A stretch of 32,000 nucleotides of DNA, taken from assembly GCA_963767445.1 (NCBI GenBank), contig CAVYEF010000001.1, forward strand, positions 3,204,869-3,236,868. Reading direction: 5' to 3'. This document shows positions 2,527 to 17,400 of this stretch, in pieces. A program made the position numbers and the translations under genes. Within the stretch, counting starts at the first letter, position 1. Every line of letters begins with the position of its first letter. The notes below the pieces were generated by a model, which saw only the letters and a program-made list of their open reading frames with translations, did not search any database and had not been told where the DNA came from. Source of the DNA: an uncultured Alphaproteobacteria bacterium (GTDB taxonomy: Bacteria; Pseudomonadota; Alphaproteobacteria; Rhizobiales; Xanthobacteraceae).

Positions 2527-2940
2527 TCAGCAGCCGCGGCAGATGCTTAAGGAGCGATCGAGCTTTCGATCCAGCAGCCTGCCATGGGTACGGGTCTCGG
2601 CGCGGGCCTGACCGCGGCGCGAAGCGCGCGGCGCGAACATCTTGCCGCGCCGTTTGATCCGGACCGCCGGTACGGCGCGCGGCGATACCCGGCTCGACGC
2701 CACGGAGCCGGCGGAGGGCACCGCGGGTGCCGCCATGCTCGGCGGCGGCGGCGCCTGAATTCTCGCCGCATTGCCGACGCCGCTCGGGTCGTTGCCCGAA
2801 TTGTTGAGACCGCCGACGCTGCCGGGCCCGCGCGGAATTCCGCTCACGCCGGCGTCGCCCGCGTTCTGGGCGAGGCCTTGCAGCGGCGCCAGCAAACCGG
2901 CCAGCACGGCAAACACGGCAAACGTCGATCTGCGGGACAT
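2527..2940 (-). CDS. Small secreted Gly/Pro-rich hypothetical protein
   Basis: ATG preceded by AAGGA (6-nt spacer) on the minus strand. Clear signal-peptide-like N-terminus (MSRRSTFAVFAVLAGLLAPLQGLA-QN). The overlapping + strand ORFs look like GC shadow ORFs. The C-terminal third is Arg-rich and less convincing. Confidence 0.45.
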   Translation of the reverse strand: MSRRSTFAVFAVLAGLLAPLQGLAQNAGDAGVSGIPRGPGSVGGLNNSGNDPSGVGNAARIQAPPPPSMAAPAVPSAGSVASSRVSPRAVPAVRIKRRGKMFAPRASRRGQARAETRTHGRLLDRKLDRSLSICRGC

Positions 2941-3049: not shown

Positions 3050-3218
3050 GTCGTCCCCGCGCAGGCGCTAAGGCATGCACACATCTCGTCATGCGCGGGC
3101 TTGACCCGCGCATCCATCCATCTTCGAAAGAGTCTTTCGAAGCGTGATGGATTGCCGGGTCAAGCCCGGCAATGACGACAGAGATATGTGCATGCCCTAG
3201 CGCCTGCGCGGGGACGAC
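3050..3218. repeat. Composite REP: family-B/C MITE flanked by inverted outer halves of family-A arms
   Basis: GTCGTCCCCGCGCAGGC-[B/C core differing by 1 nt from the copy at 998-1168]-GCCTGCGCGGGGACGAC. Here the 8-mers flanking the core are inverted rather than direct. Confidence 0.9.
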
Positions 3219-3274
3219 AGCGGCATTTTTTCACCGATCCCGCAACACCTCACCCAACCACAGGAGTATCCCTT

Positions 3275-4528
3275 ATGGACTTCGACATTTCAGACACCGC
3301 CCCCGAGCACAAGGCCGGCATCGCCGTTCGCGACGCCTACGACGATTTGCGCGTCACCTTCGAGGAGTTCAAATCCGCCAATGACGAGCGGCTGGCGAAA
3401 CTCGAGCGACGCCGCGGCGACGTGCTGCTGGAGGAGAAGGTCGAGCGCATCAACGCGGCGCTCGACCTGCAGAACCGGCGCATCGACGACGTCGCGCTTC
3501 GGCAGGGGCGTCCCGCGCTGGAAGGCCGCGGCCGGATCGTGCAGGACGCCGCCAACCGCGAGCACAAGAGCGCGTTCGACGCCTATGTGCGCTCCGGCGA
3601 GACCGCCGCGCTGCGCACGATCGAGACCAAGGCGATGTCGGCCGGCTCCGACGCCGACGGCGGCTATCTGGTGCCGGTCGAACTCGAGCACGCGATCGGC
3701 CAGCGGCTCGCCAGCATCTCGCCGATCCGCGGCCTCGCCTCGGTGCGCGAAATCTCCGGCTCGGTCTACAAGAAGCCGTTCATGACCGCGGGACCGGCGA
3801 CGGGGTGGGTCGGCGAGACCGACGCGCGCCCGCAGACCGCCTCGCCCGTGCTCGACGCGCTGTCGTTTCCGGCGATGGAGCTCTACGCCATGCCGGCGGC
3901 GACCGCGACGCTGCTCGACGACAGCGCCGTCAACATCGACGAATGGATCGCCGGTGAAGTCGAGCTCACCTTCGCGGTGCAGGAGGGCGCCGCGTTCGTG
4001 TCGGGGGACGGCAGCAATAAGCCGAAGGGCTTTCTCTCCTACAGCACGGTGGCGAATGCGTCGTGGGCCTGGGGCAGCCTCGGCACCATCGCCTCGGGTG
4101 CGGCCGGCGCGTTCGCCTCCAGCAATCCGTCCGATCCCTTGGTCGACCTGATCTATGCGCTGAAGGCGGGCTACCGGCAGAACGGCAACTTCGTGATGAA
4201 CCGCAAGACCCAGGCGGCGATCCGCAAGTTCAAGGACTCCACCGGCAATTACCTGTGGCAGCCGCCGGCGCAGGCCGGCGGGCGCGCCAACCTGATGACG
4301 TTCCCGATCGTGGAAGCCGAGGACATGCCGGACATCGCGGCCAATTCGCTGTCGATCGCGTTCGGCGACTTCCGCCGCGGCTACCTGATCGTCGACCGCG
4401 TCGGCGTCCGGGTGCTGCGCGACCCGTATTCCGCAAAACCCTACGTGTTGTTCTACACCACCAAGCGCGTCGGCGGCGGCGTGCAGGACTTCGACGCCAT
4501 CAAGCTGATGAAGTTCGCGGTGAGTTAG
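3275..4528 (+). CDS. GTA g5-like major capsid protein (HK97 family)
   Basis: GGAG 8 nt upstream of the ATG at 3275. N-terminal coiled scaffold-like delta region, then ...DADGGYLVP...ELYAMP...GDGSNKPKGFL...NGNFVMNRKT...YLWQP...LMTFPIVEAEDMP...GDFRRGYLIVDRVG..., typical of HK97-fold capsid proteins. The track ORF start at 3188 lies inside a REP element. Confidence 0.95.
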   Translation: MDFDISDTAPEHKAGIAVRDAYDDLRVTFEEFKSANDERLAKLERRRGDVLLEEKVERINAALDLQNRRIDDVALRQGRPALEGRGRIVQDAANREHKSAFDAYVRSGETAALRTIETKAMSAGSDADGGYLVPVELEHAIGQRLASISPIRGLASVREISGSVYKKPFMTAGPATGWVGETDARPQTASPVLDALSFPAMELYAMPAATATLLDDSAVNIDEWIAGEVELTFAVQEGAAFVSGDGSNKPKGFLSYSTVANASWAWGSLGTIASGAAGAFASSNPSDPLVDLIYALKAGYRQNGNFVMNRKTQAAIRKFKDSTGNYLWQPPAQAGGRANLMTFPIVEAEDMPDIAANSLSIAFGDFRRGYLIVDRVGVRVLRDPYSAKPYVLFYTTKRVGGGVQDFDAIKLMKFAVS

Positions 4529-4544
4529 CGTTAGCTCACCCGTC

Positions 4545-4777
4545 GTCGTCCCCGCAGGCGGGGACCCATAGCCACCGGCGAGCGTGGTTGCTGGTGGACC
4601 GTCGCAGGACCGTGCGTCAACACGAACGACACGGCGTATGGGTCCCCGCCTGCGCGGGGACGACGCGGAGTGAGATTCTCACATCGCGTCATACGCGGAC
4701 TTGATCCGCGTATCCATTGATCTCCGAAAAGCTTCTCACGAAGCGTGATGGATGCGCGGGTCAAGCCCGCGCATGAC
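4545..4777. repeat. Family-A inverted-arm REP followed by a diverged family-C palindrome
   Basis: GTCGTCCCCGCAGGCGGGGACCCATAGCCACCG...CGGCGTATGGGTCCCCGCCTGCGCGGGGACGAC, then GTCATACGCGGACTTGATCCGCGTATCCAT...GATGGATGCGCGGGTCAAGCCCGCGCATGAC. Confidence 0.9.
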
Positions 4778-4799
4778 GGAGATTCAGTCTGGACACTGC

Positions 4800-5435
4800 A
4801 TGCCGCAGCACGACGAGCCCTGGCAGCGCCATGCGCGCGAGCGCTGGATGCGGCCCGACGCGCATCGCTGGATACGCGCCGACGCCGCGCGCTTTCTCAA
4901 GCCCGGCACCGATCCCGCCGGCGTCTATCCGGCGCTGGCGCGCAAGCGCGACGCGGAAGACGCAGCGATTGCAGCACAGCTTGCGCAGGAGCGCGAACGC
5001 CTGGTCGCGCTGCGCGACGAACTGATATCGATCCAGGCCGAGCTGGAACGGCGGCGGCTGAAGCAAAGCAAATACAGCCCGAGCCAGCCGCGCGTGCCGA
5101 CGGGCAATCCGCGCGGCGGGCAATGGACCGATCGCAGCGGAGGTGCGGCTCAAGGCACCGGCCTCGCGTTGCCGATGGGCGACGCCGAACCCGGCGATGT
5201 CAGCGGGGCGAGCGATGTCGGCGATCCGTTTCAGATCACGCCGGACGACACGCGCGCGGACGGTGAACAGGTCGCGGATGTTATCAGGGTCTGCACAGTG
5301 ACCGGCGCTGGGCGGTCCACTGTCGATGGGGTTAAGACCCACTTTGTTATTTATGAGTGCGCTGGCGGAAGAACTTTTCGCAGGGATGGCGTCGGACACA
5401 ACTTTCGCGGCGTTGTTCTCGACCCGTTTCGGTGA
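4800..5435 (+). CDS. Polymorphic-toxin-like protein A: charged/coiled N-terminal region, conserved linker (SQPRVPTGNPRGGQWTDRSGG), short variable C-terminal domain
   Basis: ORF in the operon orientation directly after the capsid gene. I chose the internal ATG at 4800 because 4752-4799 is REP sequence. It shares a 150-nt perfectly identical segment and a further diverged linker with ORF 6107-6850, then diverges completely after TRADG-QVA. A tightly following small ORF fits a toxin/immunity layout. The function is inferred, not recognised. Confidence 0.6.
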   Translation: MPQHDEPWQRHARERWMRPDAHRWIRADAARFLKPGTDPAGVYPALARKRDAEDAAIAAQLAQERERLVALRDELISIQAELERRRLKQSKYSPSQPRVPTGNPRGGQWTDRSGGAAQGTGLALPMGDAEPGDVSGASDVGDPFQITPDDTRADGEQVADVIRVCTVTGAGRSTVDGVKTHFVIYECAGGRTFRRDGVGHNFRGVVLDPFR

Positions 5436-5483
5436 TTGAAACAATACGGCGCCTTGTCTGCGGGATAACGCAAGGACAATTGC

Positions 5484-5975
5484 ATGGTTCAGGTTAACGA
5501 TGACTTCTTCAACAGTCCCGGGCAGGTCGGGATTTCTTCCGCGGCGCTTGCGGAGGCGCGGAAGTTTGCGCGGGCGGTCGGGGCGTTGGATCATGGCGCT
5601 CAGATTGTCAGTATCGATTGGGCGTTGTCGCTCATCCTGCGGGAGCCCGGGCAGCCGGAACGGCAGGTTGGTCCCTGCGTGATGATCGGCGCCTATCGAC
5701 GGGATCAGGTGCCTGAACAATTCATCGATGTGATCGACGGATTGGAATTGGCATTCCAGATTCCGGATAATGCATGGCCTGCGGGCGCGCTGAGGATTGT
5801 CGACGTCGACGAGACCAAACCGTTCGGATTTGGGTTGCAATGGGTTTTCTCGCGCCAGCAGCGATTGTTCCGCGATCGAGCAATCGGATTTCCGCCGCGG
5901 CTACCTGATCGTCGACCGCGTCACCACCAAGCGCGTCGGCGGCGGCGTGCAGGGACTTCGACGCCATCAAGCTGA
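5484..5975 (+). CDS. Putative cognate immunity protein A (C-terminus chimeric, reads into the capsid-gene remnant)
   Basis: AAGGA 6 nt upstream of the ATG, and 48 nt downstream of the toxin-A stop. Lower-GC segment. The last ~27 codons are encoded by the out-of-frame capsid 3' remnant (from ~5895), so the native C-terminus has probably been replaced. I recognise no family. Confidence 0.45.
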   Translation: MVQVNDDFFNSPGQVGISSAALAEARKFARAVGALDHGAQIVSIDWALSLILREPGQPERQVGPCVMIGAYRRDQVPEQFIDVIDGLELAFQIPDNAWPAGALRIVDVDETKPFGFGLQWVFSRQQRLFRDRAIGFPPRLPDRRPRHHQARRRRRAGTSTPSS

Positions 5976-5995
5976 TGAAGTTCGCGGTGAGTTAG
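5895..5995 (+). pseudogene. Degenerate duplicate of the g5 capsid gene 3' end
   Basis: Aligns by eye to 4364-4528. It has one 54-bp in-frame internal deletion (equivalent to 4403-4456) and a 1-nt insertion (cagGgacttc). It ends in the same GTGAGTTAG stop context and is followed by the same REP element. Confidence 0.85.
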
Positions 5996-6011
5996 CGTTA
6001 GCTCACCCGTC

Positions 6012-6125
6012 GTCGTCCCCGCGCAGGCGGGGACCCATAGCCACCGGCGAGCGTGGTTGCTGGTGGACCGTCGCAGGACCGTGCGTCAACACGAACGACA
6101 CGGCGTATGGGTCCCCGCCTGCGCG
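6012..6125. repeat. Duplicate of the family-A REP at 4545-4655, truncated at its right arm by fusion to the toxin linker
   Basis: Near-identical to 4545-4655 (one 2-nt indel). The right arm ends ...GGGTCCCCGCCTGCGCG and continues directly into AACGCCTGGTCGCG of the toxin gene. Confidence 0.9.
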
Positions 6126-6850
6126 AACGCCTGGTCGCGCTGCGCGACGAACTGATATCGATCCAGGCCGAGCTGGAACGGCGGCGGCTGAAGCAAAGCA
6201 AATACAGCCCGAGCCAGCCGCGCGTGCCGACGGGCAATCCGCGCGGCGGGCAATGGACCGATCGCAGCGGCGGGCAGGGCACGGCGCAAGGCCAGGATCA
6301 GAGCCAGGACCCCGCCATCGCATCGCCGATGGGCGATGCCGAACCCGGCAACGTCAGCGGATCGAGCGACGTCGGCGATCTGTTCTCGACCAAGCCGGAC
6401 GTCACACGCGCTGACGGCGTGCAGGTCGCGGGTGACGGCTATCCGATTGATTTGCTCGAAGAACGCGAACTTGGCGGTCATGCAATCGAGCGTCACATCA
6501 GAAGTGACCAATCGCTCAAGTCCGACTTGGAAGCGCAGGTTGCCGGGGCCGTGCGCAAGGGCGACTCTGTTAGCGATATGCGGCAGGGTGCATTCAGCTC
6601 GCTCGAATCCGCGAACAAGCTTGTTAATGCAACTATCGCGGAAAATCCGGAACAGATTCGTCGGGTCGTCAGCGGGGTATCGCCGAAGGAAGAGCTCGAC
6701 CCAACCGGACGGGAAGCCGTTGCGCGCACGGGACGGTCGCAGATATATATTCGAGACACTTATGATGTGCGTGTTGTTATTGTACCGGACGGCTCGGTGG
6801 CAAAGGGCTTTCGAGTTGAGACGGCATTCCCGATGAACCGCAAGCGATGA
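6107..6850 (+). CDS. 5'-truncated polymorphic-toxin-like protein B with putative RNase-type C-terminal domain
   Basis: Nucleotides 6121-6270 are identical to 4991-5140 of toxin A. The region equivalent to the first ~64 codons of A is missing. In-frame starts are only available inside the REP element (ATG 6107 within tATGGGTCCCC, or 6053). The C-terminal domain has the GGHAIERHI and ETAFP motifs, which I recall from CdiA-CT RNase-type toxins. Confidence 0.55.
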   Translation: MGPRLRERLVALRDELISIQAELERRRLKQSKYSPSQPRVPTGNPRGGQWTDRSGGQGTAQGQDQSQDPAIASPMGDAEPGNVSGSSDVGDLFSTKPDVTRADGVQVAGDGYPIDLLEERELGGHAIERHIRSDQSLKSDLEAQVAGAVRKGDSVSDMRQGAFSSLESANKLVNATIAENPEQIRRVVSGVSPKEELDPTGREAVARTGRSQIYIRDTYDVRVVIVPDGSVAKGFRVETAFPMNRKR

Positions 6851-6854
6851 TGCC

Positions 6855-7346
6855 ATGCCAAAAGAATTCAAGATCGCACTTCGCCTGGCTTATGATGATC
6901 TGGGATCGCTACAGTCCTGGTCACGGGCAGCGAATTACCTGCGTGCACGGGAATTCCTTGAAGCGCTGGTCGGAGGCCCGCATCGGGTGGCCAAAACGCA
7001 TTTTGGCGACATTGATGAGTACGATATTTCATCCCAGGCGCAAATGAATGAATTCATAAGATTCAATTCGGAGTTGAAAAGGGCGAATCCCGAAACCGAT
7101 CCTGGTCGCGCGATGGCGCAAACTGGTCTGGACGTCCATTGCCTGTTCAACGGGATATCGATGACAATTCCCTACGGCACGGTGCAGAACTACCGGCTTG
7201 CTTCGGCGCTGGCATCTGAACTCACCGGTCCCGCCGGGCGCGCGGTTTCGGAAGAAGGAGACGAGACATTTTATCTCGAAACGCGAGAACAAATGGACGC
7301 GTTGTTTGCTTTGCAACGGAAGTTGAAAGTGAAGCGCGAAGATTGA
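6855..7346 (+). CDS. Putative cognate immunity protein B
   Basis: The ATG lies 4 nt after the toxin-B stop (tight coupling). 163 aa, acidic. This is the most A/T-rich segment of the window. I recognise no family; the role is inferred from position only. Confidence 0.5.
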   Translation: MPKEFKIALRLAYDDLGSLQSWSRAANYLRAREFLEALVGGPHRVAKTHFGDIDEYDISSQAQMNEFIRFNSELKRANPETDPGRAMAQTGLDVHCLFNGISMTIPYGTVQNYRLASALASELTGPAGRAVSEEGDETFYLETREQMDALFALQRKLKVKRED

Positions 7347-7401
7347 CGTTGCTCGTGGTCTCTGTTGCGCGGAGCATTCTTCGCGTCTAGGACATGGGTC
7401 T

Positions 7402-8160
7402 TCACAATCCCGCGCTCCACGCGCGCGCCGTCTGCAATATCCACCCCCGGTACAGCGTCAGCGGGGTAACGCCGGTGAGGCCGCCGCAGCCGTCGGTGTT
7501 GTTCGGTCCCGTCGACCAGCTTACCACGCCAACAATGACGGCGCGGCCGCCCTGCATCGCGAAGGCCGGCGCGCCGGAATCCCCGGTGCAGGCGCCGAGG
7601 CCATCGCGGGTGTTGTTGGTGAGCGGATCGGCGAGACGGATCTGCAAAGTGCCGGGCTTGCCGGTGATGGCGAGATCCGCGGCGCGGACGCTGCCGCCGC
7701 TCTTGCCGTCGCCGCGCCGGGTGACGCCGACGCCGGCGATGGTAAGGCGGTCGCCGGTCTGAATCGGGACCAGCGGCGCGCCGAGCGGCGCCGGGGTTTT
7801 GCTCGCGGGCAGCGGAGCGGCCAGTTGCAGCAGCGTCACGTCGGCGGAGGCGCGGTGCGCCGCGATGCTTGCCGCATTGAATTGCGGATGCTGCGCCACG
7901 CGCTTGACGTCGAGCAGACGCGGCGGCGTTTCGCCGGGAACGATGACCTTGTAGTCGGCGCCGGGCATCGCGCAATGCGCCGCGGTCAACACCAGATCCT
8001 GCGCGATCAGGCTGCCGGTGCAGAAGGTGCCGCGCGAGCCGATGACGGTGACGACCGCGCGCGACATGTTTTCCGCGGGCGCGCCGCCGCCGCCGACGAT
8101 GGCGGATGCGGGGGTGACGGCGAGCGCGGCGGCGACGGCGATGACGAAGCGTTGAATCAT
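7402..8160 (-). CDS. Secreted trypsin-like (S1 family) serine peptidase
   Basis: Signal peptide MIQRFVIAVAAALAVTPASA, then IVGG, TAAHC (His), and GDSGAP (Ser) motifs. It is antisense to the GTA operon. I chose the start at 8160 (internal Met of track ORF 7402..8208). Confidence 0.85.
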   Translation of the reverse strand: MIQRFVIAVAAALAVTPASAIVGGGGAPAENMSRAVVTVIGSRGTFCTGSLIAQDLVLTAAHCAMPGADYKVIVPGETPPRLLDVKRVAQHPQFNAASIAAHRASADVTLLQLAAPLPASKTPAPLGAPLVPIQTGDRLTIAGVGVTRRGDGKSGGSVRAADLAITGKPGTLQIRLADPLTNNTRDGLGACTGDSGAPAFAMQGGRAVIVGVVSWSTGPNNTDGCGGLTGVTPLTLYRGWILQTARAWSAGL

Positions 8161-8264
8161 CCGGCGATGTGAGCCGCTGCCGGCGGCGAGTGTCAATGCT
8201 CCTCGCATCCCGTACCCGATGCGGCGCGACGTGCCGCGTCCGCGGCGCGAAATACATAAAGCGC

Positions 8265-8352
8265 GTCATGCGCGGGCTTGACCCGCGCATCCATCCAGCT
8301 TCGCAACACGCTTTCGAAGACGATGGATTGCCGGGTCAAGCCCGGCAATGAC
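8265..8352. repeat. Family-C palindrome alone
   Basis: GTCATGCGCGGGCTTGACCCGCGCATCCATCC...GATGGATTGCCGGGTCAAGCCCGGCAATGAC, immediately upstream of g6. Confidence 0.9.
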
Positions 8353-8371
8353 GAAGGGAAGGATCACCGCC

Positions 8372-8938
8372 ATGTCCGCCATCCTGCTGACGCCGCCATC
8401 CGCCGAGCCGTGGACGGTGGCGGAGGCCAAGGACTTTCTGCGCATCGAGCATGACGATGACGATACCATCGTCGCGGCGCTGGTCGCGGCAGCCCGCGGC
8501 CATGTCGAGGCGCTGACGCGGCGCGCGCTGCTGACGCAGGGCTGGCGCTTCGTGCTCGATGCGTGGCCATCAGACGGCCGCTACGCGCCGCGCATGGCGC
8601 CGCTGCGCGAACTCGCCGCGGCGCGGGTCTACGACGCCGCCGGCCACGCCGGCGCCGTCGACACCGCGACCTTCGTGCTCGACGCCGCCGCCAATGTGAT
8701 CGCGGCGCCATGCTTGTCGCTGCCCGTTCCCGGCCGCGCCGCCGCCGGCATCGAACTCGACGTCCAGCTCGGCTACGGCGCCGCGGTCGATGTGCCGGAT
8801 GCGCTGCGCCATGCGGTGCGCATGCTGGTGGCGCACTGGTACGAGAACCGCGGCCTCGCCGCGCTCGGCGCAAGCGTGGCGGTGCTGCCGGCCGGCGCCG
8901 GCGCGCTGCTCGCGCCCTATCGGGTGCTGTCGCTATGA
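8372..8938 (+). CDS. GTA g6-like head-tail connector (gp6-like adaptor)
   Basis: GGGAAGGA upstream of the ATG at 8372. Pattern EPWTVAEAKDFLRIEHDDDDTIVAALVAAARGHVEALTRRALLTQ....HWYENRG is typical of phage gp6-like head-tail connectors. Its stop overlaps the next start (ATGA). Confidence 0.85.
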   Translation: MSAILLTPPSAEPWTVAEAKDFLRIEHDDDDTIVAALVAAARGHVEALTRRALLTQGWRFVLDAWPSDGRYAPRMAPLRELAAARVYDAAGHAGAVDTATFVLDAAANVIAAPCLSLPVPGRAAAGIELDVQLGYGAAVDVPDALRHAVRMLVAHWYENRGLAALGASVAVLPAGAGALLAPYRVLSL

Positions 8939-9264: not shown

Positions 9265-9375
9265 GGCGCGCAGATCATCCCGAACGCCGGGCGTTCGTAA
9301 CGGCCCCGGCTCTGCAGCACATCGCGCCGCAAAGTGCGACGCGGCGCTGCGTCCGGGGCACGCAGTATATCTGCC

Positions 9376-9494
9376 GTCGTCCCCGCGCAGGCGGGGACCC
9401 ATAGCCACGGTGTTTGCAGCGGCGCGCCGGCGCTGGGGCATCGTGCTTCATCACGACGGCGGTGTGTATGGATCCCCGCCTGCGCGGGGACGAC
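9376..9494. repeat. Family-A inverted-arm REP
   Basis: GTCGTCCCCGCGCAGGCGGGGACCCATAGCCACGG...GTGTGTATGGATCCCCGCCTGCGCGGGGACGAC, between g7 and g8. Confidence 0.9.
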
Positions 9495-9936: not shown

Positions 9937-10344
9937 ATGGGCGCGCAAAAAGGCAAGGACCTGCTGCTCAAGATCGACGGCGGCACCGGCTTCGTCACCG
10001 TGGCGGGCTTGCGCAGCCGCCGCATCGCCTTCAACGCCGAACTGGTCGACATCACGCACGCGGAATTGGTCGACCGCTGGCGTGAATTGCTGGCCGGCGC
10101 CGGGATGCGGCGGGCGTCGATCTCGGGGCGCGGCCTGTTCAAGGACGCCGCCTCCGACGCGCTGGTGCGGCAGGCGTTCTTCGACGGCGCGGTCAACAAC
10201 ACCCGGGTGATCGTGCCGGATTTCGGCACCGTCGAGGGGCTGTTCCAGATTTCGAGCCTGGAATTTGCCGGCGAGCACAATGGCGAAGTGACGTTCGACC
10301 TCACGCTGGAATTGGCCGGCGCGCTGACATTCACGGCGATGTAG
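9937..10344 (+). CDS. GTA g9-like major tail (tube) protein
   Basis: AAGGAA upstream. MGAQKGKDLLLKID.G.GFVTVAGLRS..I.FNAE.VD.T ... SG.G.F.D...D ... F.I.SLE.AGEHNGEVTF.L.L matches the TP901-1-type major tail protein as in RcGTA g9. Confidence 0.9.
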   Translation: MGAQKGKDLLLKIDGGTGFVTVAGLRSRRIAFNAELVDITHAELVDRWRELLAGAGMRRASISGRGLFKDAASDALVRQAFFDGAVNNTRVIVPDFGTVEGLFQISSLEFAGEHNGEVTFDLTLELAGALTFTAM

Positions 10345-10349
10345 GTTTC

Positions 10350-10475
10350 ATCGTCCTCGCGGAGGCGGGGACCCACACGCCGTCGCTGCGAACTAGAAAG
10401 TGTCGACGGCTTGCGGGTGCAATTTTGCCGGATCATGAACGCCGGTGGTCATGGATCCCCGCCTGCGGGGACGAC
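10350..10475. repeat. Family-A inverted-arm REP (diverged)
   Basis: ATCGTCCTCGCGGAGGCGGGGACCCACA...TCATGGATCCCCGCCTGCGGGGACGAC, between g9 and g10. Confidence 0.8.
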
Positions 10476-10489
10476 GAGGAGAGGTTTCG

Positions 10490-10813
10490 ATGGCCAACAA
10501 ATACCGCGGCGAGATCGAGGCCGAGATCGGCGGCATCCGGCGCGTGCTGGTGCTGACGCTGGGGGCGCTGGCGGAACTGGAGAGCGCGTTCGCGGCCGGC
10601 GACCTGGTGGCGCTGGCGGAGCGCTTGGGTTCGGGACGGTTGTCGGCGCGCGACCTCGTGCGCATCATCGCCGCCGGCCTGCGCGGCGCCGGCGAGAACA
10701 TCGGGGACGACGAGGTCGCGGCCATGACGGTGGAGGGCGGCGCCGCCGGTTATGTGCGGATCGCAGCCGAACTGATCGCCGCCACCTTCGACGACACGCC
10801 GGCGCCGCGATGA
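10490..10813 (+). CDS. GTA g10-like tail assembly chaperone (gene transfer agent family protein)
   Basis: GAGGAGAGG upstream of the ATG at 10490. RGEIEAEIGG..R.L.LTLGALAELE.AF...L.AL..R resembles the GTA g10 family. The track ORF start at 10445 lies in a REP arm. Confidence 0.8.
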   Translation: MANKYRGEIEAEIGGIRRVLVLTLGALAELESAFAAGDLVALAERLGSGRLSARDLVRIIAAGLRGAGENIGDDEVAAMTVEGGAAGYVRIAAELIAATFDDTPAPR

Positions 10814-11001
10814 AGCCGTTCCCGTGGACCGACGCCATGCAGTTCGGCTTCGGCGTGCTGCGCCTGTCGCCGGACGCGTTCTGGCGAATGACGCCGCGCG
10901 AACTGGCGCAGGCCATCGCCGCGGTGCGCGGCCATGCCCCGGCGCCGATCGCGCGCGGCGATTTCGACGCGCTGATGCAAGCGTTTCCGGACAGGGCATA
11001 A
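10810..11001 (+). CDS. GTA g10.1-like protein (rcc01693-family tail assembly chaperone)
   Basis: ATGA overlap with g10. MKPFPW.DAMQFGFGVLRLSPDAFWRMTPRELA.A matches my recollection of the rcc01693 family. Confidence 0.8.
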   Translation: MKPFPWTDAMQFGFGVLRLSPDAFWRMTPRELAQAIAAVRGHAPAPIARGDFDALMQAFPDRA

Positions 11002-11011
11002 CGTACTCAGC

Positions 11012-11099
11012 GTCATGTGCGGGCTTGACCCGCGCATCCATCAATCTTCGCAAGATTCTTTCGAAGACGATGGATTGCCGGGTCAAGCCCGGCAACGAC
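11012..11099. repeat. Family-C palindrome alone
   Basis: GTCATGTGCGGGCTTGACCCGCGCATCCATCA...GATGGATTGCCGGGTCAAGCCCGGCAACGAC, between g10.1 and g11. Confidence 0.9.
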
Positions 11100-11118
11100 A
11101 CAGATGGAGGAGCGATTC

Positions 11119-11703
11119 ATGGCCGACGACACCGACCTGCTCTCGACGTCGAGCACGCTCGACGGCCTTGCGCTGAAGACAAAAGACCTCACCGCCAGCG
11201 CCGGCGGATTCGCGCGCGCGATGACGCAGGCGTTTTCCGCCTCCGTCAGCGGCGGCAAGCAGTTCGACGACGTACTGAAATCGCTCGGCCTGCGCATCTC
11301 CGATCTCGCGGTGCGGCTCGCCTTCAAGCCGCTGGAGAAGTCCTTGACCAGCGGCATATCGAGCCTGCTGTCGGGGCTGACCGGCAGCGTCGGCGGCGGC
11401 GCGACCTCATCGCTCGCCGCCGCGTCCGGCGCGATCAAGCCGTTCGCGGCCGGCGGCGTGATCGGCACGCCGAGCTATTTTCCGCTCGCAAGCGGCGGCG
11501 TGGGCCTTGCCGGCGAAGCCGGACCCGAAGCGATCATGCCGCTGACGCGCGGCCCCGACGGCCGGCTCGGCGTATCCGGCGGCGGCGGCAACACCATCAA
11601 TGTGCAGATCGCCACCCCCGACCTCGACAATTTCCGCCGCTCCGAAAGCTACGTCACCGGCCAGATCGCCCGCGCCGTGGCGCGAGGGCAGCGCAGTTTG
11701 TGA
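11119..11703 (+). CDS. GTA g11-like short tape measure protein
   Basis: GGAGGA 7 nt upstream of the ATG at 11119. Ala/Gly/Ser-rich helical N-terminus, then FAAGGVIG.PSYFP...G.GLAGEAGPEAIMPL.RG.DGRLGV, typical of the GTA tape measure. Confidence 0.85.
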   Translation: MADDTDLLSTSSTLDGLALKTKDLTASAGGFARAMTQAFSASVSGGKQFDDVLKSLGLRISDLAVRLAFKPLEKSLTSGISSLLSGLTGSVGGGATSSLAAASGAIKPFAAGGVIGTPSYFPLASGGVGLAGEAGPEAIMPLTRGPDGRLGVSGGGGNTINVQIATPDLDNFRRSESYVTGQIARAVARGQRSL

Positions 11704-11728
11704 GCTACTTGCTCCGGACGCACCACGA

Positions 11729-11931
11729 GTCGTCCCCGCGCAGGAGGGGACCCATAGCCACCGATGTTTGTGGTTGCGTGCGGACAATGCCACATCGTGC
11801 TTCAACGCCAGCACGGTGTGTATGGGTCCCCGCCTTCGCGCTAGGGCATGCACATATCTCTGTCGTCATTGCCGGGCTTGACCCGCGCATGACGAGATGT
11901 GTGCATGCCTGAGCGCCTTCGCGGGGACGAC
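11729..11931. repeat. Composite REP: family-A element with a short family-B MITE in the right arm
   Basis: ...TATGGGTCCCC-GCCTTCGC-[GCTAGGGCATGCACATATCTCTGTCGTCATTGCCGGGCTTGACCCGCGCATGACGAGATGTGTGCATGCCTGAGC]-GCCTTCGC-GGGGACGAC. There is an exact 8-bp direct duplication. Confidence 0.9.
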
Positions 11932-14004: not shown

Positions 14005-14445
14005 ATGCCCCCACCTCTCACCCGCGCCGCGATCGTTGCCGAGGCGCGCTCCTGGATCGGCACGCGCTATCGGCATCAGGCGTCGGTGAAGGGCGTCGGC
14101 TGCGATTGTCTCGGGCTGGTGCGCGGAGTGTGGCGGGCATGCGTCGGCGAGGAGCCGGAGACGGTGCCGCCTTACGCGCCGGACTGGGCCGAGTCGAGCG
14201 GCGAAGAGTTGCTTGCCGACGCGGCGCTGCGTCATCTTGCGCCGGTGCCGTGCGAAAAATTCGCGGCCGGCGACGTGCTGCTGTTTCGCTGGCGCGCCGG
14301 GTGCGTCGCCAAGCATGTCGCCATCGCGGCATCGCACGGCGCCATGATCCATGCCCATGACGGCGCATCGGTATGCGAGATCGCCATCGCGCCGTGGTGG
14401 CGGCGTCGGCTCGCTCATGCGTTCGCCTTTCCCGGAGTTGACTGA
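14005..14445 (+). CDS. GTA g14-like NlpC/P60 cell-wall peptidase
   Basis: ACGGAG upstream of the ATG at 14005. IV.EAR.WIGT.YRHQAS.KG.GCDCLGLVRGVW (catalytic Cys context) ... HVAI....MIHA. The track ORF start at 13942 is inside a REP element. Confidence 0.9.
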   Translation: MPPPLTRAAIVAEARSWIGTRYRHQASVKGVGCDCLGLVRGVWRACVGEEPETVPPYAPDWAESSGEELLADAALRHLAPVPCEKFAAGDVLLFRWRAGCVAKHVAIAASHGAMIHAHDGASVCEIAIAPWWRRRLAHAFAFPGVD

Positions 14446-17400
14446 TGGCAGCTCTCGTTCTTTCCGTCGCGGGCGCCGCGGCCGGGGCAGTGTTCGGTCC
14501 GGCCGGCGCGATGGCCGGGCGGATCGCCGGCGCGCTGGTCGGCAATATCGTCGACCGGAAGCTGTTCGGGCCCGGCGACCAGAACGTGGTCGGGCCGCGG
14601 CTCGCCGATCTCGACGTGATGGCCTCGACCGAGGGCGCGCCGATCCCGCGGGTCTATGGCCGCGCCAGGCTTGCCGGCCAGGTGATCTGGGCGACGCAGC
14701 TCGAGGAGGTGGTCTCCAGCTCGACCACCTCGTCGGGCGGCAAGGGCCATCTCGTCTCCGGGCCCCGCACGACCACCACCACCTATTCCTACTTCGGCAA
14801 TTTCGCGGTCGGCCTGTGCGAAGGCGTGATCGGGCGGGTGGGGCGGATCTGGGCCGACGGCAAGCTGCTCGACCAGACCGACAAGACCATCCGCGTTCAT
14901 CGCGGCACCGAAGCGCAGGCGGTCGACGACCTGATCCTCGCCAAGCAGGGTGCCGGCACCGCGCCGGCCTACCGTGGCCTCGCTTACGTGGTGTTCGAAC
15001 GGCTGCCGCTGGCGGATTTCGGCAACCGCATCCCGCAATTGTCGTTCGAGATCGTCAGGCCGGTCGGCGAGCTCGAACGCATGATCCGCGCGGTGACGAT
15101 GATCCCCGGCACCACCGAATTCGGCTACGACCCATCCACCATCGTCGGGGTTCTCCTGCCCGGCACCTCGGCGCCGGAGAACCGCCACGTCTCGAACGCG
15201 GCCTCGGATGTACAGGCCGCGCTCGACGACCTCATCGGCGTCTGCCCCAACCTCGAACGCGTCGCGCTGGTGGTGGCGTGGTTCGGCTCGGACCTGCGCT
15301 GCGGGCACTGTACCGTGCAGCCCGGCGTCGAGAGCGCCGACAAGTTCGTCAGTGGCGGATCGTGGTCCGTCTATGGCGCGGCGCGCGGCAGCGCGCATGT
15401 CGTGTCGCAGGTCGGCGGCCGGCCTGCGTTCGGCGGCACGCCGTCGGATGCCAGCGTGGTGAGCCTGATCGCCGAACTGAAAGCGCGCGGGTTAAAGATC
15501 ACGTTCTATCCGTTTGTGGTGATGGACATCGCTGCCGGCAACGCGCTGCCGGATCCATGGAGCGGGGCGGCGTCGCAGCCGGCCTATCCGTGGCGCGGCC
15601 GCATTACCTGCGATCCGGCGCCGGGCCAACCCGGCTCGCCGCACGGCACCCCGGCCGCGGCGGCGCAGGTGGCGAGTTTCTTCTCCGGCGGCGACTGGAA
15701 TTATTGCGGCATGATCCTGCACTACGCCGACCTCGTGGCGTCGGCCGGCGGCGTCGAGGCGTTTTTGATCGGCTCGGAATTGAAGGGCCTGACGCGGGTG
15801 CGCTCCGCCGCGGGGGTCTATCCGGCGGTGGACGCGCTGGTGGCGCTGGCCGCGGATGTCAAGGCGATCGTCGGCGGCGCGACCCTGGTCAGCTATGGCG
15901 CCGACTGGACCGAATACGGCGCCGACGTGGTCGATGCATCGGAGGTGCGCTTCCCGCTCGATGCGCTGTGGGCCTCGCCGGCGATCGGCGCGGTCGGCAT
16001 CGACTGGTATGCGCCGCTCGCCGACTGGCGCGATGGCGCCGGGCATCTGGATTCCGCGCTCACGCCGTCGATCCATGACAAAAGCTATCTCGGCGGCAAT
16101 GTCGCGGGCGGTGAGGGCTACGACTTCTACTATGTCGACGACGCCGCGCGCGCGGCGCAGGCGCGCACCGGCATTTCAGACAGTCTCGGCAAGCCCTGGA
16201 TATTCCGTGCCAAGGACATTCTGAACTGGTGGTCGTCGGCGCATCACGAGCGCGTCGCCAATGCCGAACTGGCGTCGCCGACCGCGTGGATCGCGCGCTC
16301 GAAACCGGTATGGTTCACCGAGGTCGGCTGTCCCGCGGTCGACAAGGGCGCCAACCAGCCCAGCGTGTTTCCCGATCCGAAATCCTCGGAGAACGCCTTG
16401 CCGTATTTTTCCAGCGGCGCGCGTGACGACCTGATGCAGCGCCGTTATCTGGAATCGTTCATCGCCGCGTTCGATCCGGCCTATGGCGCCGACGTCGCGC
16501 GCAATCCGGTGTCGCCGCTCTATGGCGGCCGCATGGTCGATCTCTCCGCGCTGCATCTGTGGACCTGGGACGCGCGGCCCTATCCGGTGTTTCCCGGCGC
16601 GTCCGAGGTCTGGAGCGACGGACCGAACTGGCAGACCGGACACTGGCTCACCGGCCGGCTCGGGAGCGCGCCGCTGGACGCGCTGATCGGCGCACTGCTC
16701 GACGATGCCGGCGTGGACGGTGTCGACAGCGGCGGCTTGCGTGAGACGTGCGACGGCTATGTCGTCGATCGCCCGATGTCGCCACGCGCGATGATCGAGC
16801 CGCTGGCGATGGCCTACGCGTTCGACGCGACCGCGGCCGACGGCACGCTGCGCTTCGTGCAGCGTGGCGGCGCACCGGTCGCCGAAATTGTCGAAGACGA
16901 TCTGGTGCTGCCGGATCACGGCGCGGTGGCGCGGCTGACCCGCGCGGAGGAAACCGGGCTGCCGCGCGAGACCAGCCTTGGCTTCACCGACGCGGATGCG
17001 GATTACCGCCGCTCGGCGGCGATCTCGCGCAAGCTGGTCGGCGCCGCCGGCCGGGCGCTGCATTCCGATCTTGCCGTGATCACCAACGAGGCGGCGGCGA
17101 CGCGGCGCGCCGAAATCTGGCTGCAGGATCTGTGGGCGGGACGCGAGAGCGCGGAGTTCGCGCTCGGCGTGGCCGCGTTGCGATTAGCGCCGGGCGACGT
17201 GGTGGCGCTGACGCTGGGCGGCCGGCGGCGGCTGTTCGAGATCGGCGACCTGATCGATACCGAGACGCGGCAGGTCAAGGCGCGCAGCATCGATCCCGAG
17301 GTGTTCTCGGTGCCGCTGCAGCCGTCGCGCATGAGGGCGCCGCCGATTCCGCCGGCGCTGGGGCCGGTCGCGGTGACGGTGCTGGACCTGCCCGCGCTCG

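Follow-up and report, generated by a model that had tools for sequence, protein, structure and literature searches.

Why gene transfer agents (GTAs) persist, though their producers die and others benefit, is a long-standing puzzle. In GTAs of the Rhodobacter capsulatus type (RcGTA), the gene g5 abuts g6. The production of colicins is tied to the lysis of a subpopulation, and in this they are likened to GTA producers. Temperate phages, as well as remnants of prophages, encode polymorphic toxins of the MuF type (Zhang et al. 2012, PMC3482391; Jamet et al. 2017, PMC5576092). For these, Zhang et al. 2012 (PMC3482391) proposed packing into a capsid and delivery 'as in phage transduction systems'. 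The polyvalent proteins of phages are also presumed to be delivered with the virion (Iyer et al. 2017, PMC5512222). Here we analyzed a 32,000-nucleotide stretch from an uncultured Xanthobacteraceae bacterium (contig CAVYEF010000001.1; the whole stretch is referred to as the window), in which an RcGTA-type cluster carries two cassettes between g5 and g6, one complete toxin gene with its partner gene, followed by one displaced orphan RNase-A-type toxin gene with its partner. The cassettes very probably belong to a polymorphic toxin/immunity system that is tied to GTA clusters. An initial reading of the letters alone (the sequence-only reading) had known of no described GTA-borne toxin/immunity system; the literature that we searched, including Shakya et al. 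2017, holds no account of GTA-linked polymorphic toxins or of these inserts either, and the system is called undescribed to that extent.

Different from RcGTA, the head-module slots of the window and of related Nitrobacteraceae are filled with cassettes, a trypsin-like protease, a beta-helix protein and repetitive extragenic palindromic (REP) elements.

Organization of the two cassettes

The cluster in the window is of RcGTA type: g4-g15 are collinear and contain the GTA_TIM, Rcc01698_C, GTA-gp10, DUF2460 and BR0599 domains. The g2 and g3 genes belong upstream of the window start; both were seen in related loci. As the sequence-only reading had stated, about 3.8 kb lies between g5 and g6 (4529-8347; g5 ends at 4528 and g6 starts at 8348). 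The open reading frames (ORFs) of the cassettes, the repeats between them and the two bordering GTA genes are as follows.

3272-4528, plus strand: g5, HK97-type major capsid gene, the upstream anchor of the cassettes (TIGR01554, E = 7e-122; PF05065, E = 7e-90)
4543-4790: two REP-type palindromic elements in the gap between g5 and the first toxin gene (direct and inverted repeat families D3, D4, D5 and I2-I5)
4800-5435, plus strand: ORF1, full-length toxin gene, 211 residues (family homology, C-terminal switch)
5484-5975, plus strand: ORF1 partner, putative immunity gene of downstream family I2 (co-variation with T3 toxins)
5887-5995, plus strand: decayed duplicate of the g5 3' end (repeat families D6, D8 and D9 at 97-100%; pairwise alignment; tblastn)
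5998-6125: REP duplicate, equal to 4531-4656 plus 2 nucleotides (nt) (family D4, 99% identity)
6107-6850, plus strand: ORF2, 5'-truncated orphan toxin gene, 247 residues (PF18431; ORF1 homology from 6122)
6855-7346, plus strand: ORF2 partner, putative immunity gene of downstream family I4, 163 residues (pairing with RNase-A-type C-termini)
8348-8938, plus strand: g6, head-tail connector gene, the downstream border of the cassettes (TIGR02215, E = 2.7e-56)

ORF1 and ORF2 had been described as co-oriented genes with a common N-terminal part and unrelated C-termini, and this holds: the two proteins diverge after '..TRADG.QVA', at ORF1 residue 158. At the DNA level, 4991-5143 is 99% identical to 6121-6273, a segment that ends with the codons for GGQWTDRSGG, and the linker (5151-5280 versus 6305-6434) is 80% identical, with no similarity beyond. 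The two small ORFs start 48 nt (5484) and 4 nt (6855) past the respective toxin stop codons, in agreement with the 4-48 nt given before. The lower GC content noted for this segment is also seen; it is 0.53-0.60 over the C-terminal domains and small ORFs, compared to 0.67-0.73 in the flanks. One AAGGA Shine-Dalgarno sequence is located ~11 nt 5' of the ORF1 partner (5484).

Residues 1-91 of ORF1 are helical. They are followed by the motif KYSPSQPRVPTGNPRGGQWTDRSGG (nt 5070-5144), by a Gly-rich linker with a pre-toxin block (PMG..GDVSG.S..GD.F.I.P.DTR.DG.QVA) up to nt 5273, and by the C-terminal domain CT1 (cluster T3; nt 5274-5432), which is 53 residues in size and contains two Cys. The AlphaFold model of ORF1 has a mean predicted local distance difference test (pLDDT) value of 61; it contains several short helices and a single long one (residues 44-91), together with a disordered region (residues 93-160) and one small three-stranded sheet (residues 165-198, pLDDT 73-81), of which the long helix and the sheet are the only confident parts. 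When the model was compared with the PDB using Foldseek, nothing was found below E = 0.3. The 53-residue C-terminus is a putative toxin domain, as judged from the architecture of the gene.

In ORF2, the motif (6200-6274) is followed by a longer Gly/Gln linker and the pre-toxin block to about 6436. Its C-terminus (~6476-6832) matches PF18431 RNAse_A_bac (CdiA-CT RNase A) with E = 1.6e-9 and 39 bits, versus a gathering threshold of 27, and the match spans profile positions 1-113 of 113. The sequence match of ORF2 to PDB entry 5e3e_B, CdiA-CT of Yersinia kristensenii, is end-to-end but weak (E = 0.42). PDB sequence searches with the ORF2 partner and with the ORF1-family profile gave nothing meaningful. 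Library searches of the four ORFs had been put forward as a check on the toxin assignment, and PF18431 was found in ORF2 alone: ORF1 and both partners have no Pfam, NCBIfam or PHROG match, and with Pfam at E ≤ 0.1 PF18431 is the only match to ORF1 or ORF2; the MuF domain, PF04233, was not matched. Neither ORF1 nor ORF2 contains a signal peptide or a known secretion domain, and the motif region is predicted to be disordered in the ORF1 model.

The ORF1 search returned 696 homologous clusters, nearly all from Bradyrhizobium-like genomes and soil metagenomes, and phmmer with the N-terminal 158 residues returned 1,040 representatives (50% identity clusters, E ≤ 1e-3). The family alignment starts with a conserved RW.RHDAH.WIR.D..RF..PG segment, which is followed by a charged helix, by the invariant KYSPSQPRVP.GNPRGGQWTDRSGG motif (KYSPSQPRVPxGNPRGGQWT) and by a Gly/Gln linker that varies in length; another conserved block, PMGN...GDVSGSSELGDLFQIKP.DTR.DG.QVA, precedes the unrelated C-termini. 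The loci nearest to the window come from Bradyrhizobium and from Nitrobacteraceae metagenome-assembled genomes (MAGs).

C-terminal types and their downstream partners

The co-variation sample comprised 62 loci and the window, which gave 114 genes with the N-terminal module; their C-termini and downstream ORFs were clustered separately. Of the C-terminal types, at least 14 are recurrent, and about 16 more were seen once. The C-terminal type and the family of the downstream ORF co-vary almost one to one, as listed below.

T1 with I1: 21/22
T2 (RNase-A type) with I4, I7 and I10: split over three families
T3 (ORF1 type) with I2: 8/8
T4 with I6: 6/7
T5 with I5: 6/6
T6 with I9: 4/5
T7 with I8: 4/4

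The window pairs are T3-I2 and T2-I4, and in 6 cases I4 stands behind a C-terminus of the RNase-A type. T7 is a MafB19-like deaminase (PF14437, 29.2 bits versus a threshold of 27), and its partner family I8 is Pfam Imm1 (PF14430, above threshold). I1 corresponds to DUF2019 and I9 to DUF6968. A DUF4258-like C-terminal domain also occurs in the family, with a score just below the Pfam threshold. Among the top 120 ORF1 matches, 72 have the ORF1-type C-terminus, 31 the RNase-A type and 14 a domain of ~174 residues containing HHIVEQ; by its HHI(A/V)E motif, this domain, which has no Pfam match, is putatively HNH-like. Members of the I2 family are 119 residues in length. All 163 residues of the I4 member in the window are conserved in locus L001, and its C-terminal ~80 residues match the short I4 members (76-82 residues).

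Such co-variation between type and partner is the defining behaviour of polymorphic toxin/immunity systems. The array of this kind with a displaced, truncated orphan that the sequence-only reading had proposed is borne out by PF18431, by the at least 14 C-terminal types, by the co-variation of the partners and by Imm1.

A conserved N-terminus, a variable C-terminus and a small following ORF are also the arrangement of tail fibres with their chaperones, and the genes stand among structural genes; the products could be variable proteins for receptor binding or head decoration, each with its own chaperone for assembly. The domains PF18431 and PF14437 are enzymatic toxin domains, however, and one partner family is Imm1; moreover, the genes are located in the head module rather than the tail-tip module, and g15 is already the host-specificity protein. 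We rejected this tail-fibre and chaperone reading because the C-terminal domains are toxins, and its probability is close to nil.

C-terminal types T3, T6, T8 and T14 are very small (53-80 residues) and cysteine-rich, unlike enzymatic toxins; examples are found in L043 (5821-6192) and L048 (5234-5662). These small types might act outside the cytoplasm or non-enzymatically.

Location in GTA head modules

For the locus survey, one genome per species was used, which gave 60 loci from Bradyrhizobium, Afipia, Rhodopseudomonas, Nitrobacter, Pseudolabrys, Rhodoplanes, Pseudorhodoplanes and Hyphomicrobiales; the GTA genes were located by tblastn with GTA proteins. The toxin gene lies inside the GTA head-tail cluster in 57/60 loci, directly behind a terminase, portal, protease or capsid gene (g2, g3, g4 or g5), and there it is always co-oriented with the GTA genes. 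The position in the head module and in operon orientation, first noted for the window, is therefore systematic, and the survey of related genomes gave the variable C-terminal/immunity pairs on a conserved N-terminus that a polymorphic system had been expected to show. The N-terminal module is nearly confined to RcGTA-type head modules; its carriers are Nitrobacteraceae, Xanthobacteraceae and some further Alphaproteobacteria.

Each cluster contains one to four copies. Among the 114 genes, 79 start ≤450 nt 3' of g2, g3, g4, g5 or g9, these being either intact or partial duplicates; the remaining genes are mostly second or third members of tandem arrays. When each N-terminus was compared with its nearest neighbour from a different locus, the upstream gene was the same in 55/82 cases, a count that a few overlapping loci inflate slightly, compared to 24.6 ± 4.8 in shuffles. 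The N-termini are thus grouped by slot, and therefore the slots are long-standing and not random insertions.

Two side observations concern the surveyed loci. No GTA genes were found within 10 kb of the pairs in L045 (9905-11118), L053 (about 9947-10690) and L054 (9893-10794); the L045 pair lies beside glycosyltransferase and aminotransferase-like genes, and the L054 pair beside an aminotransferase gene. L009, L011, L027 and L033 contain a second, more divergent homologue of the terminase large subunit, which shares about 58-65% identity with the query and is separated from the first one by several kb; it stands either behind g5 or in the stretch from the portal/toxin region to g4 (in L011, the two are at 841-2313 and 14379-15752).

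Duplication, truncation and gain of cassettes

The segment between the two cassettes records how the second one was added. The g5 duplicate (5887-5995) corresponds to 4367-4402 plus 4456-4528, within the last ~160 nt of g5, at 97-100% identity; it bears one 54-nt deletion and one 1-nt insertion. ORF2 is without the first 64 codons, its homology to ORF1 beginning at 6122, which corresponds to ORF1 residue 65. One 339-nt deletion with GCGCG microhomology at its borders took the second REP element together with these 64 codons, and the ATG of ORF2 (6107) is located inside the REP duplicate (5998-6125). The ORF1 partner has lost its stop codon (5838-5846): the family end is ..FGFGLR*, and here it reads ..FGFGLQW... 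The native part of this partner is 119 codons (5484-5840), followed by 44 codons that are read out of frame into the g5 duplicate. The g5 duplicate and REP copy ahead of the orphan cassette had escaped the sequence-only reading; the stop loss of the partner and the minus-strand trypsin-like gene described below are additions to it.

The direct repeats are 70-153 nt in length and 99-100% identical; because of these repeats and of a protein family with 696 clusters and 1,040 representatives, chance is ruled out. Across the loci, partial copies of the 3' end of g3, g4 or g5 are repeatedly found where one tandem cassette follows another, and therefore the scar in the window reflects the general way of adding cassettes. 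New cassettes arrive by recombination, with homology provided by the 3' end of the upstream GTA gene and by the conserved 5' part of the toxin gene. The order A-N-CT1-I1-A'-N'-CT2-I2 fits two inferred routes, single-crossover integration of a circularised fragment through the g5-3'/N-terminal region, or unequal allele exchange.

Truncated or decayed toxin copies are common among the loci. In addition to the 5'-truncated displaced orphan of the window (6107-7346), orphan CT1 modules of ~87 residues are present elsewhere. A profile search with CT1 only, aimed at other scaffolds (Rhs, CdiA), gave 14 such short modules; known full-length carriers were missed as well, so this negative is weak.

An alternative is that the GTA cluster is a mere landing pad, and that the pairs are hitch-hiking cargo, either addiction or toxin-antitoxin-like modules or toxins exported by another route. 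The cluster is conserved, REP-rich and prone to recombination, with REP elements flanking the cassettes and most GTA genes of the window; the cassettes have a lower GC content than the flanks, orphans and decayed copies are common, and the cluster holds other non-GTA genes, encoding the beta-helix protein and the trypsin-like protease. However, cargo of this kind would hardly be confined almost entirely to five intergenic slots of GTA head modules in several genera, always co-oriented with the GTA genes. The slot-specific N-terminal lineages point to long residence, swapped C-termini on a conserved N-terminus of ~160 residues are the mark of exported toxins and make toxin-antitoxin modules unlikely, and the motif is common to effectors of phage head modules. 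We consider the landing-pad explanation improbable.

The motif in a portal fusion and in phage polyvalent proteins

In L062, a Rhodospirillaceae MAG, the portal is fused in frame to the motif, the linker and a DUF4258-like C-terminus (3202-4893), and the fusion gene is followed by one 94-residue ORF (4907-5191). The portal homology ends at residue 392, the toxin homology sets in precisely at the motif, and the fusion is without the N-terminal helices that standalone proteins have. The standalone homologues P0283 and P0284 (L064 and L065) begin 9 nt behind the portal gene; one 89-residue ORF and the S78 protease come next. Because the portal replaces the helices in the fusion, this single Rosetta-stone case suggests that it is normally the N-terminal helices by which the protein associates with the portal or procapsid.

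The phmmer search also matched proteins of 1,000-2,700 residues that contain 4-9 copies of K[YF]xPxQPRxPxGxxxGG[QR]W, one ahead of each domain; the domains include Acb1, ART-PolyVal, ADP-ribosyltransferase, GNAT, NUDIX and Fic. They correspond to the phage polyvalent proteins described by Iyer et al. 2017 (PMC5512222). Three such polyvalent loci were examined, L063 (4451-14267), L066 (440-13380) and L067 (8001-15349); each has 3-11 matches to the motif expression, and all are phage head modules. The polyvalent genes are located 5' of an S78-family prohead protease in 3/3 loci. They follow a MuF gene in both loci that reach far enough upstream, and also a portal gene in one. In L063, the motif stands ahead of the S78_2 protease domain itself as well. 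The MuF likeness suggested by the sequence-only reading is thus retained in part: no MuF domain is present in the window proteins, but their motif recurs in polyvalent proteins next to MuF and S78 protease genes. As far as a text search of Iyer et al. 2017 (PMC5512222) on motif and linker terms reaches, the motif is not described there.

Because the portal fusion, the sharing of the motif with polyvalent proteins, and the disorder together with the missing export signal all point in the same direction, we favour the view that the motif marks proteins that go into the capsid, and it may be where the prohead protease processes them. The GTA toxins would then be loaded into particles, as Zhang et al. 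2012 (PMC3482391) proposed for MuF toxins. The motif may be a general processing or loading signal.

Polyvalent proteins with anti-defence domains, Acb1 for example, contain the motif as well, and the C-terminal enzymes could accordingly be injected helpers that disarm recipient defences for the transferred DNA, with the downstream ORFs protecting the producer. This is very unlikely: the C-termini are classic interbacterial toxins (CdiA-CT RNase A; MafB19 deaminase with an Imm1 partner), and toxin/immunity diversification with orphan arrays is typical of antagonism.

More weight is given to colicin-like release, by which the toxins would be co-expressed with the GTA genes, remain unpackaged and be freed at lysis, the N-terminus and motif serving for receptor binding and import and the immunity genes shielding kin. 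The toxin genes are indeed co-oriented in a lysis-linked operon, the three loci outside GTA clusters mean that the module exists without adjacent head genes, and the small Cys-rich types T3, T6 and T14 could act outside the cytoplasm. The Gly-rich disorder, taken from the model, and the short invariant motif also resemble colicin translocation domains. However, an import box would not be expected up to nine times at the domain boundaries of polyvalent proteins, nor inside an S78 protease ORF; in addition, the portal takes the place of the N-terminal helices in the fusion, and the toxin genes stand behind head genes and not near lysis genes. Colicin-like release is a serious rival and the main one, but it is given a lower probability than packaging inside particles, which we favour.

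Flanking genes and repeats

Apart from the cassettes and their borders, the following features were identified in the window.

185-988: g4, prohead protease (PF04586)
7402-8208, minus strand: trypsin-like serine protease (PF00089, E = 1.8e-25)
3' of g6, in canonical order: g7-g15 (GTA-gp10 chaperone, DUF2460, BR0599 and NlpC/P60 domains)
g15, 1282 residues: host-specificity protein (GTA_TIM and Rcc01698_C domains)

The trypsin-like protein has a signal-peptide-like N-terminus (..AVTPASA/IVGG..). By tblastn, its gene is located on the opposite strand just before g6 in nearly all related clusters (most of L004-L061), and it is duplicated or decayed in some loci, such as L031, L041 and L046. That this protease processes the K/R-rich toxin motif is pure speculation. 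The gap between g4 and g5 contains two ORFs that are not GTA genes. One encodes a secreted right-handed beta-helix protein (PF13229; 1449-2402, plus strand); it is present at the same site in L001 and L012 and is duplicated in some cases. The other is small and Pro/Ala-rich, with a signal-like N-terminus (2527-2940, minus strand).

REP palindromes are present in almost every intergenic gap (3050-3218, 4543-4790, 5998-6125 and 8252-8354), with further sites at about 9290-9450, 10380-10450, 11000-11100 and 11700-11900. They give rise to spurious ORF extensions such as MRGSSPRMT.., ..GLDPRIHPSS.. and ..PAFAGTT... A scan for promoters and terminators over 4400-8500 gave counts no higher than in shuffled sequence.

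Discussion

Our best explanation joins the toxin/immunity system, the gain of cassettes by recombination, and the packaging of the toxins with delivery to recipients; as a whole, this statement is given a probability of about 0.4. In those cells of the population that produce GTAs, the toxins would be transcribed together with the GTA head genes. Steered by its N-terminal helices and by the invariant disordered motif K-Y-S-P-S-Q-P-R-V-P-x-G-x-x-x-G-G-Q-W, the protein would enter the assembling GTA head, and the motif could also be cut by the S78 prohead protease. The toxin would then exit with the particle and enter the recipient together with the DNA; kin with the matching immunity gene would survive, whereas other recipients would be poisoned. 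Particle-mediated delivery, considered as a claim in itself, is put forward tentatively, at somewhat less than even chances. More doubtful is the broader model of RcGTA-type particles as dual-purpose carriers in certain Alphaproteobacteria, Nitrobacteraceae and Xanthobacteraceae among them, in which DNA travels with toxins that are head-loaded via a short motif serving phage polyvalent proteins too as a general loading or processing signal, productive gene transfer is restricted to kin, delivery is independent of contact, and the GTA genes serve as homology arms for the cassettes. Besides DNA transfer, GTA particles may thus serve to carry or release weapons against non-kin bacteria.

Several observations weigh against this explanation. 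The 53-residue C-terminus of ORF1 showed no recognisable toxin fold or family in the library, PDB and Foldseek searches, and it was not found on another toxin scaffold in the CT1 search, itself a weak one. ORF2 is without the N-terminal 64 residues and may not be expressed, and the ORF1 partner carries a stop-loss extension. The portal fusion is a single MAG case, and the search with the L062 C-terminal part gave only two standalone homologues. Three of the 60 loci (L045, L053 and L054) hold motif-bearing toxin/partner pairs in an ordinary host context. Finally, the heads of RcGTA-type particles are small, and RcGTA delivers its DNA to the periplasm; therefore RNases and deaminases that act in the cytoplasm would need a further entry step.

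A toxin family in the GTA head module would give GTAs a selectable function, namely to kill or exclude non-kin or to enforce kin-limited gene transfer, and the polymorphic toxins would gain a new trafficking class. The 19-residue motif, common to the toxins and to phage polyvalent virion proteins, is a candidate signal for capsid loading or processing; if confirmed, it could be used to load cargo. At least a dozen of the toxin and immunity domains in the family are uncharacterised, and cultivable relatives exist in Afipia, Rhodopseudomonas and Nitrobacter.

Comparison with known systems

Like the MuF toxins, the window family has swapped C-terminal toxin domains, adjacent immunity genes and a head-module site near terminase, portal and capsid genes. 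Different from them, it is without the MuF domain, and its N-terminus consists of ~90 helical residues and the disordered invariant motif. The carrier is also different; it is a chromosomal RcGTA-type GTA and not a temperate phage, and the cassettes are distributed over slots after g2, g3, g4 and g5.

The family resembles the contact-dependent growth inhibition (CDI) system (CdiA-CT/CdiI; Y. kristensenii, PDB 5E3E) in that the ORF2 domain belongs to PF18431, a displaced orphan CT/immunity module is present, and the GC content of the cassettes is lower. Unlike CDI proteins, the family members are only 200-350 residues in size and contain no haemagglutinin repeats or VENN motif, and the ORF2 partner is unrelated in sequence to any solved CdiI; among the window genes examined, no CdiB-like gene was found. 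With phage polyvalent proteins, the family shares the position of the motif just ahead of the effector domain and the head module with an S78-family prohead protease. Polyvalent proteins contain 2-15 effector domains and no adjacent immunity gene, whereas the window family has one toxin domain, one immunity gene and strain polymorphism.

Like colicins and other lysis-released bacteriocins, the system consists of paired toxin and immunity genes, and the N-terminal part of the toxin is Gly-rich and disordered. Unlike colicins, its proteins show no recognisable receptor-binding or translocation domain, its genes are chromosomal and located inside a GTA operon, and its motif is common to phage virion effectors. 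Taken together, the toxin/immunity logic itself is already known, and what is apparently new is the N-terminal trafficking module and the use of a GTA as the carrier.

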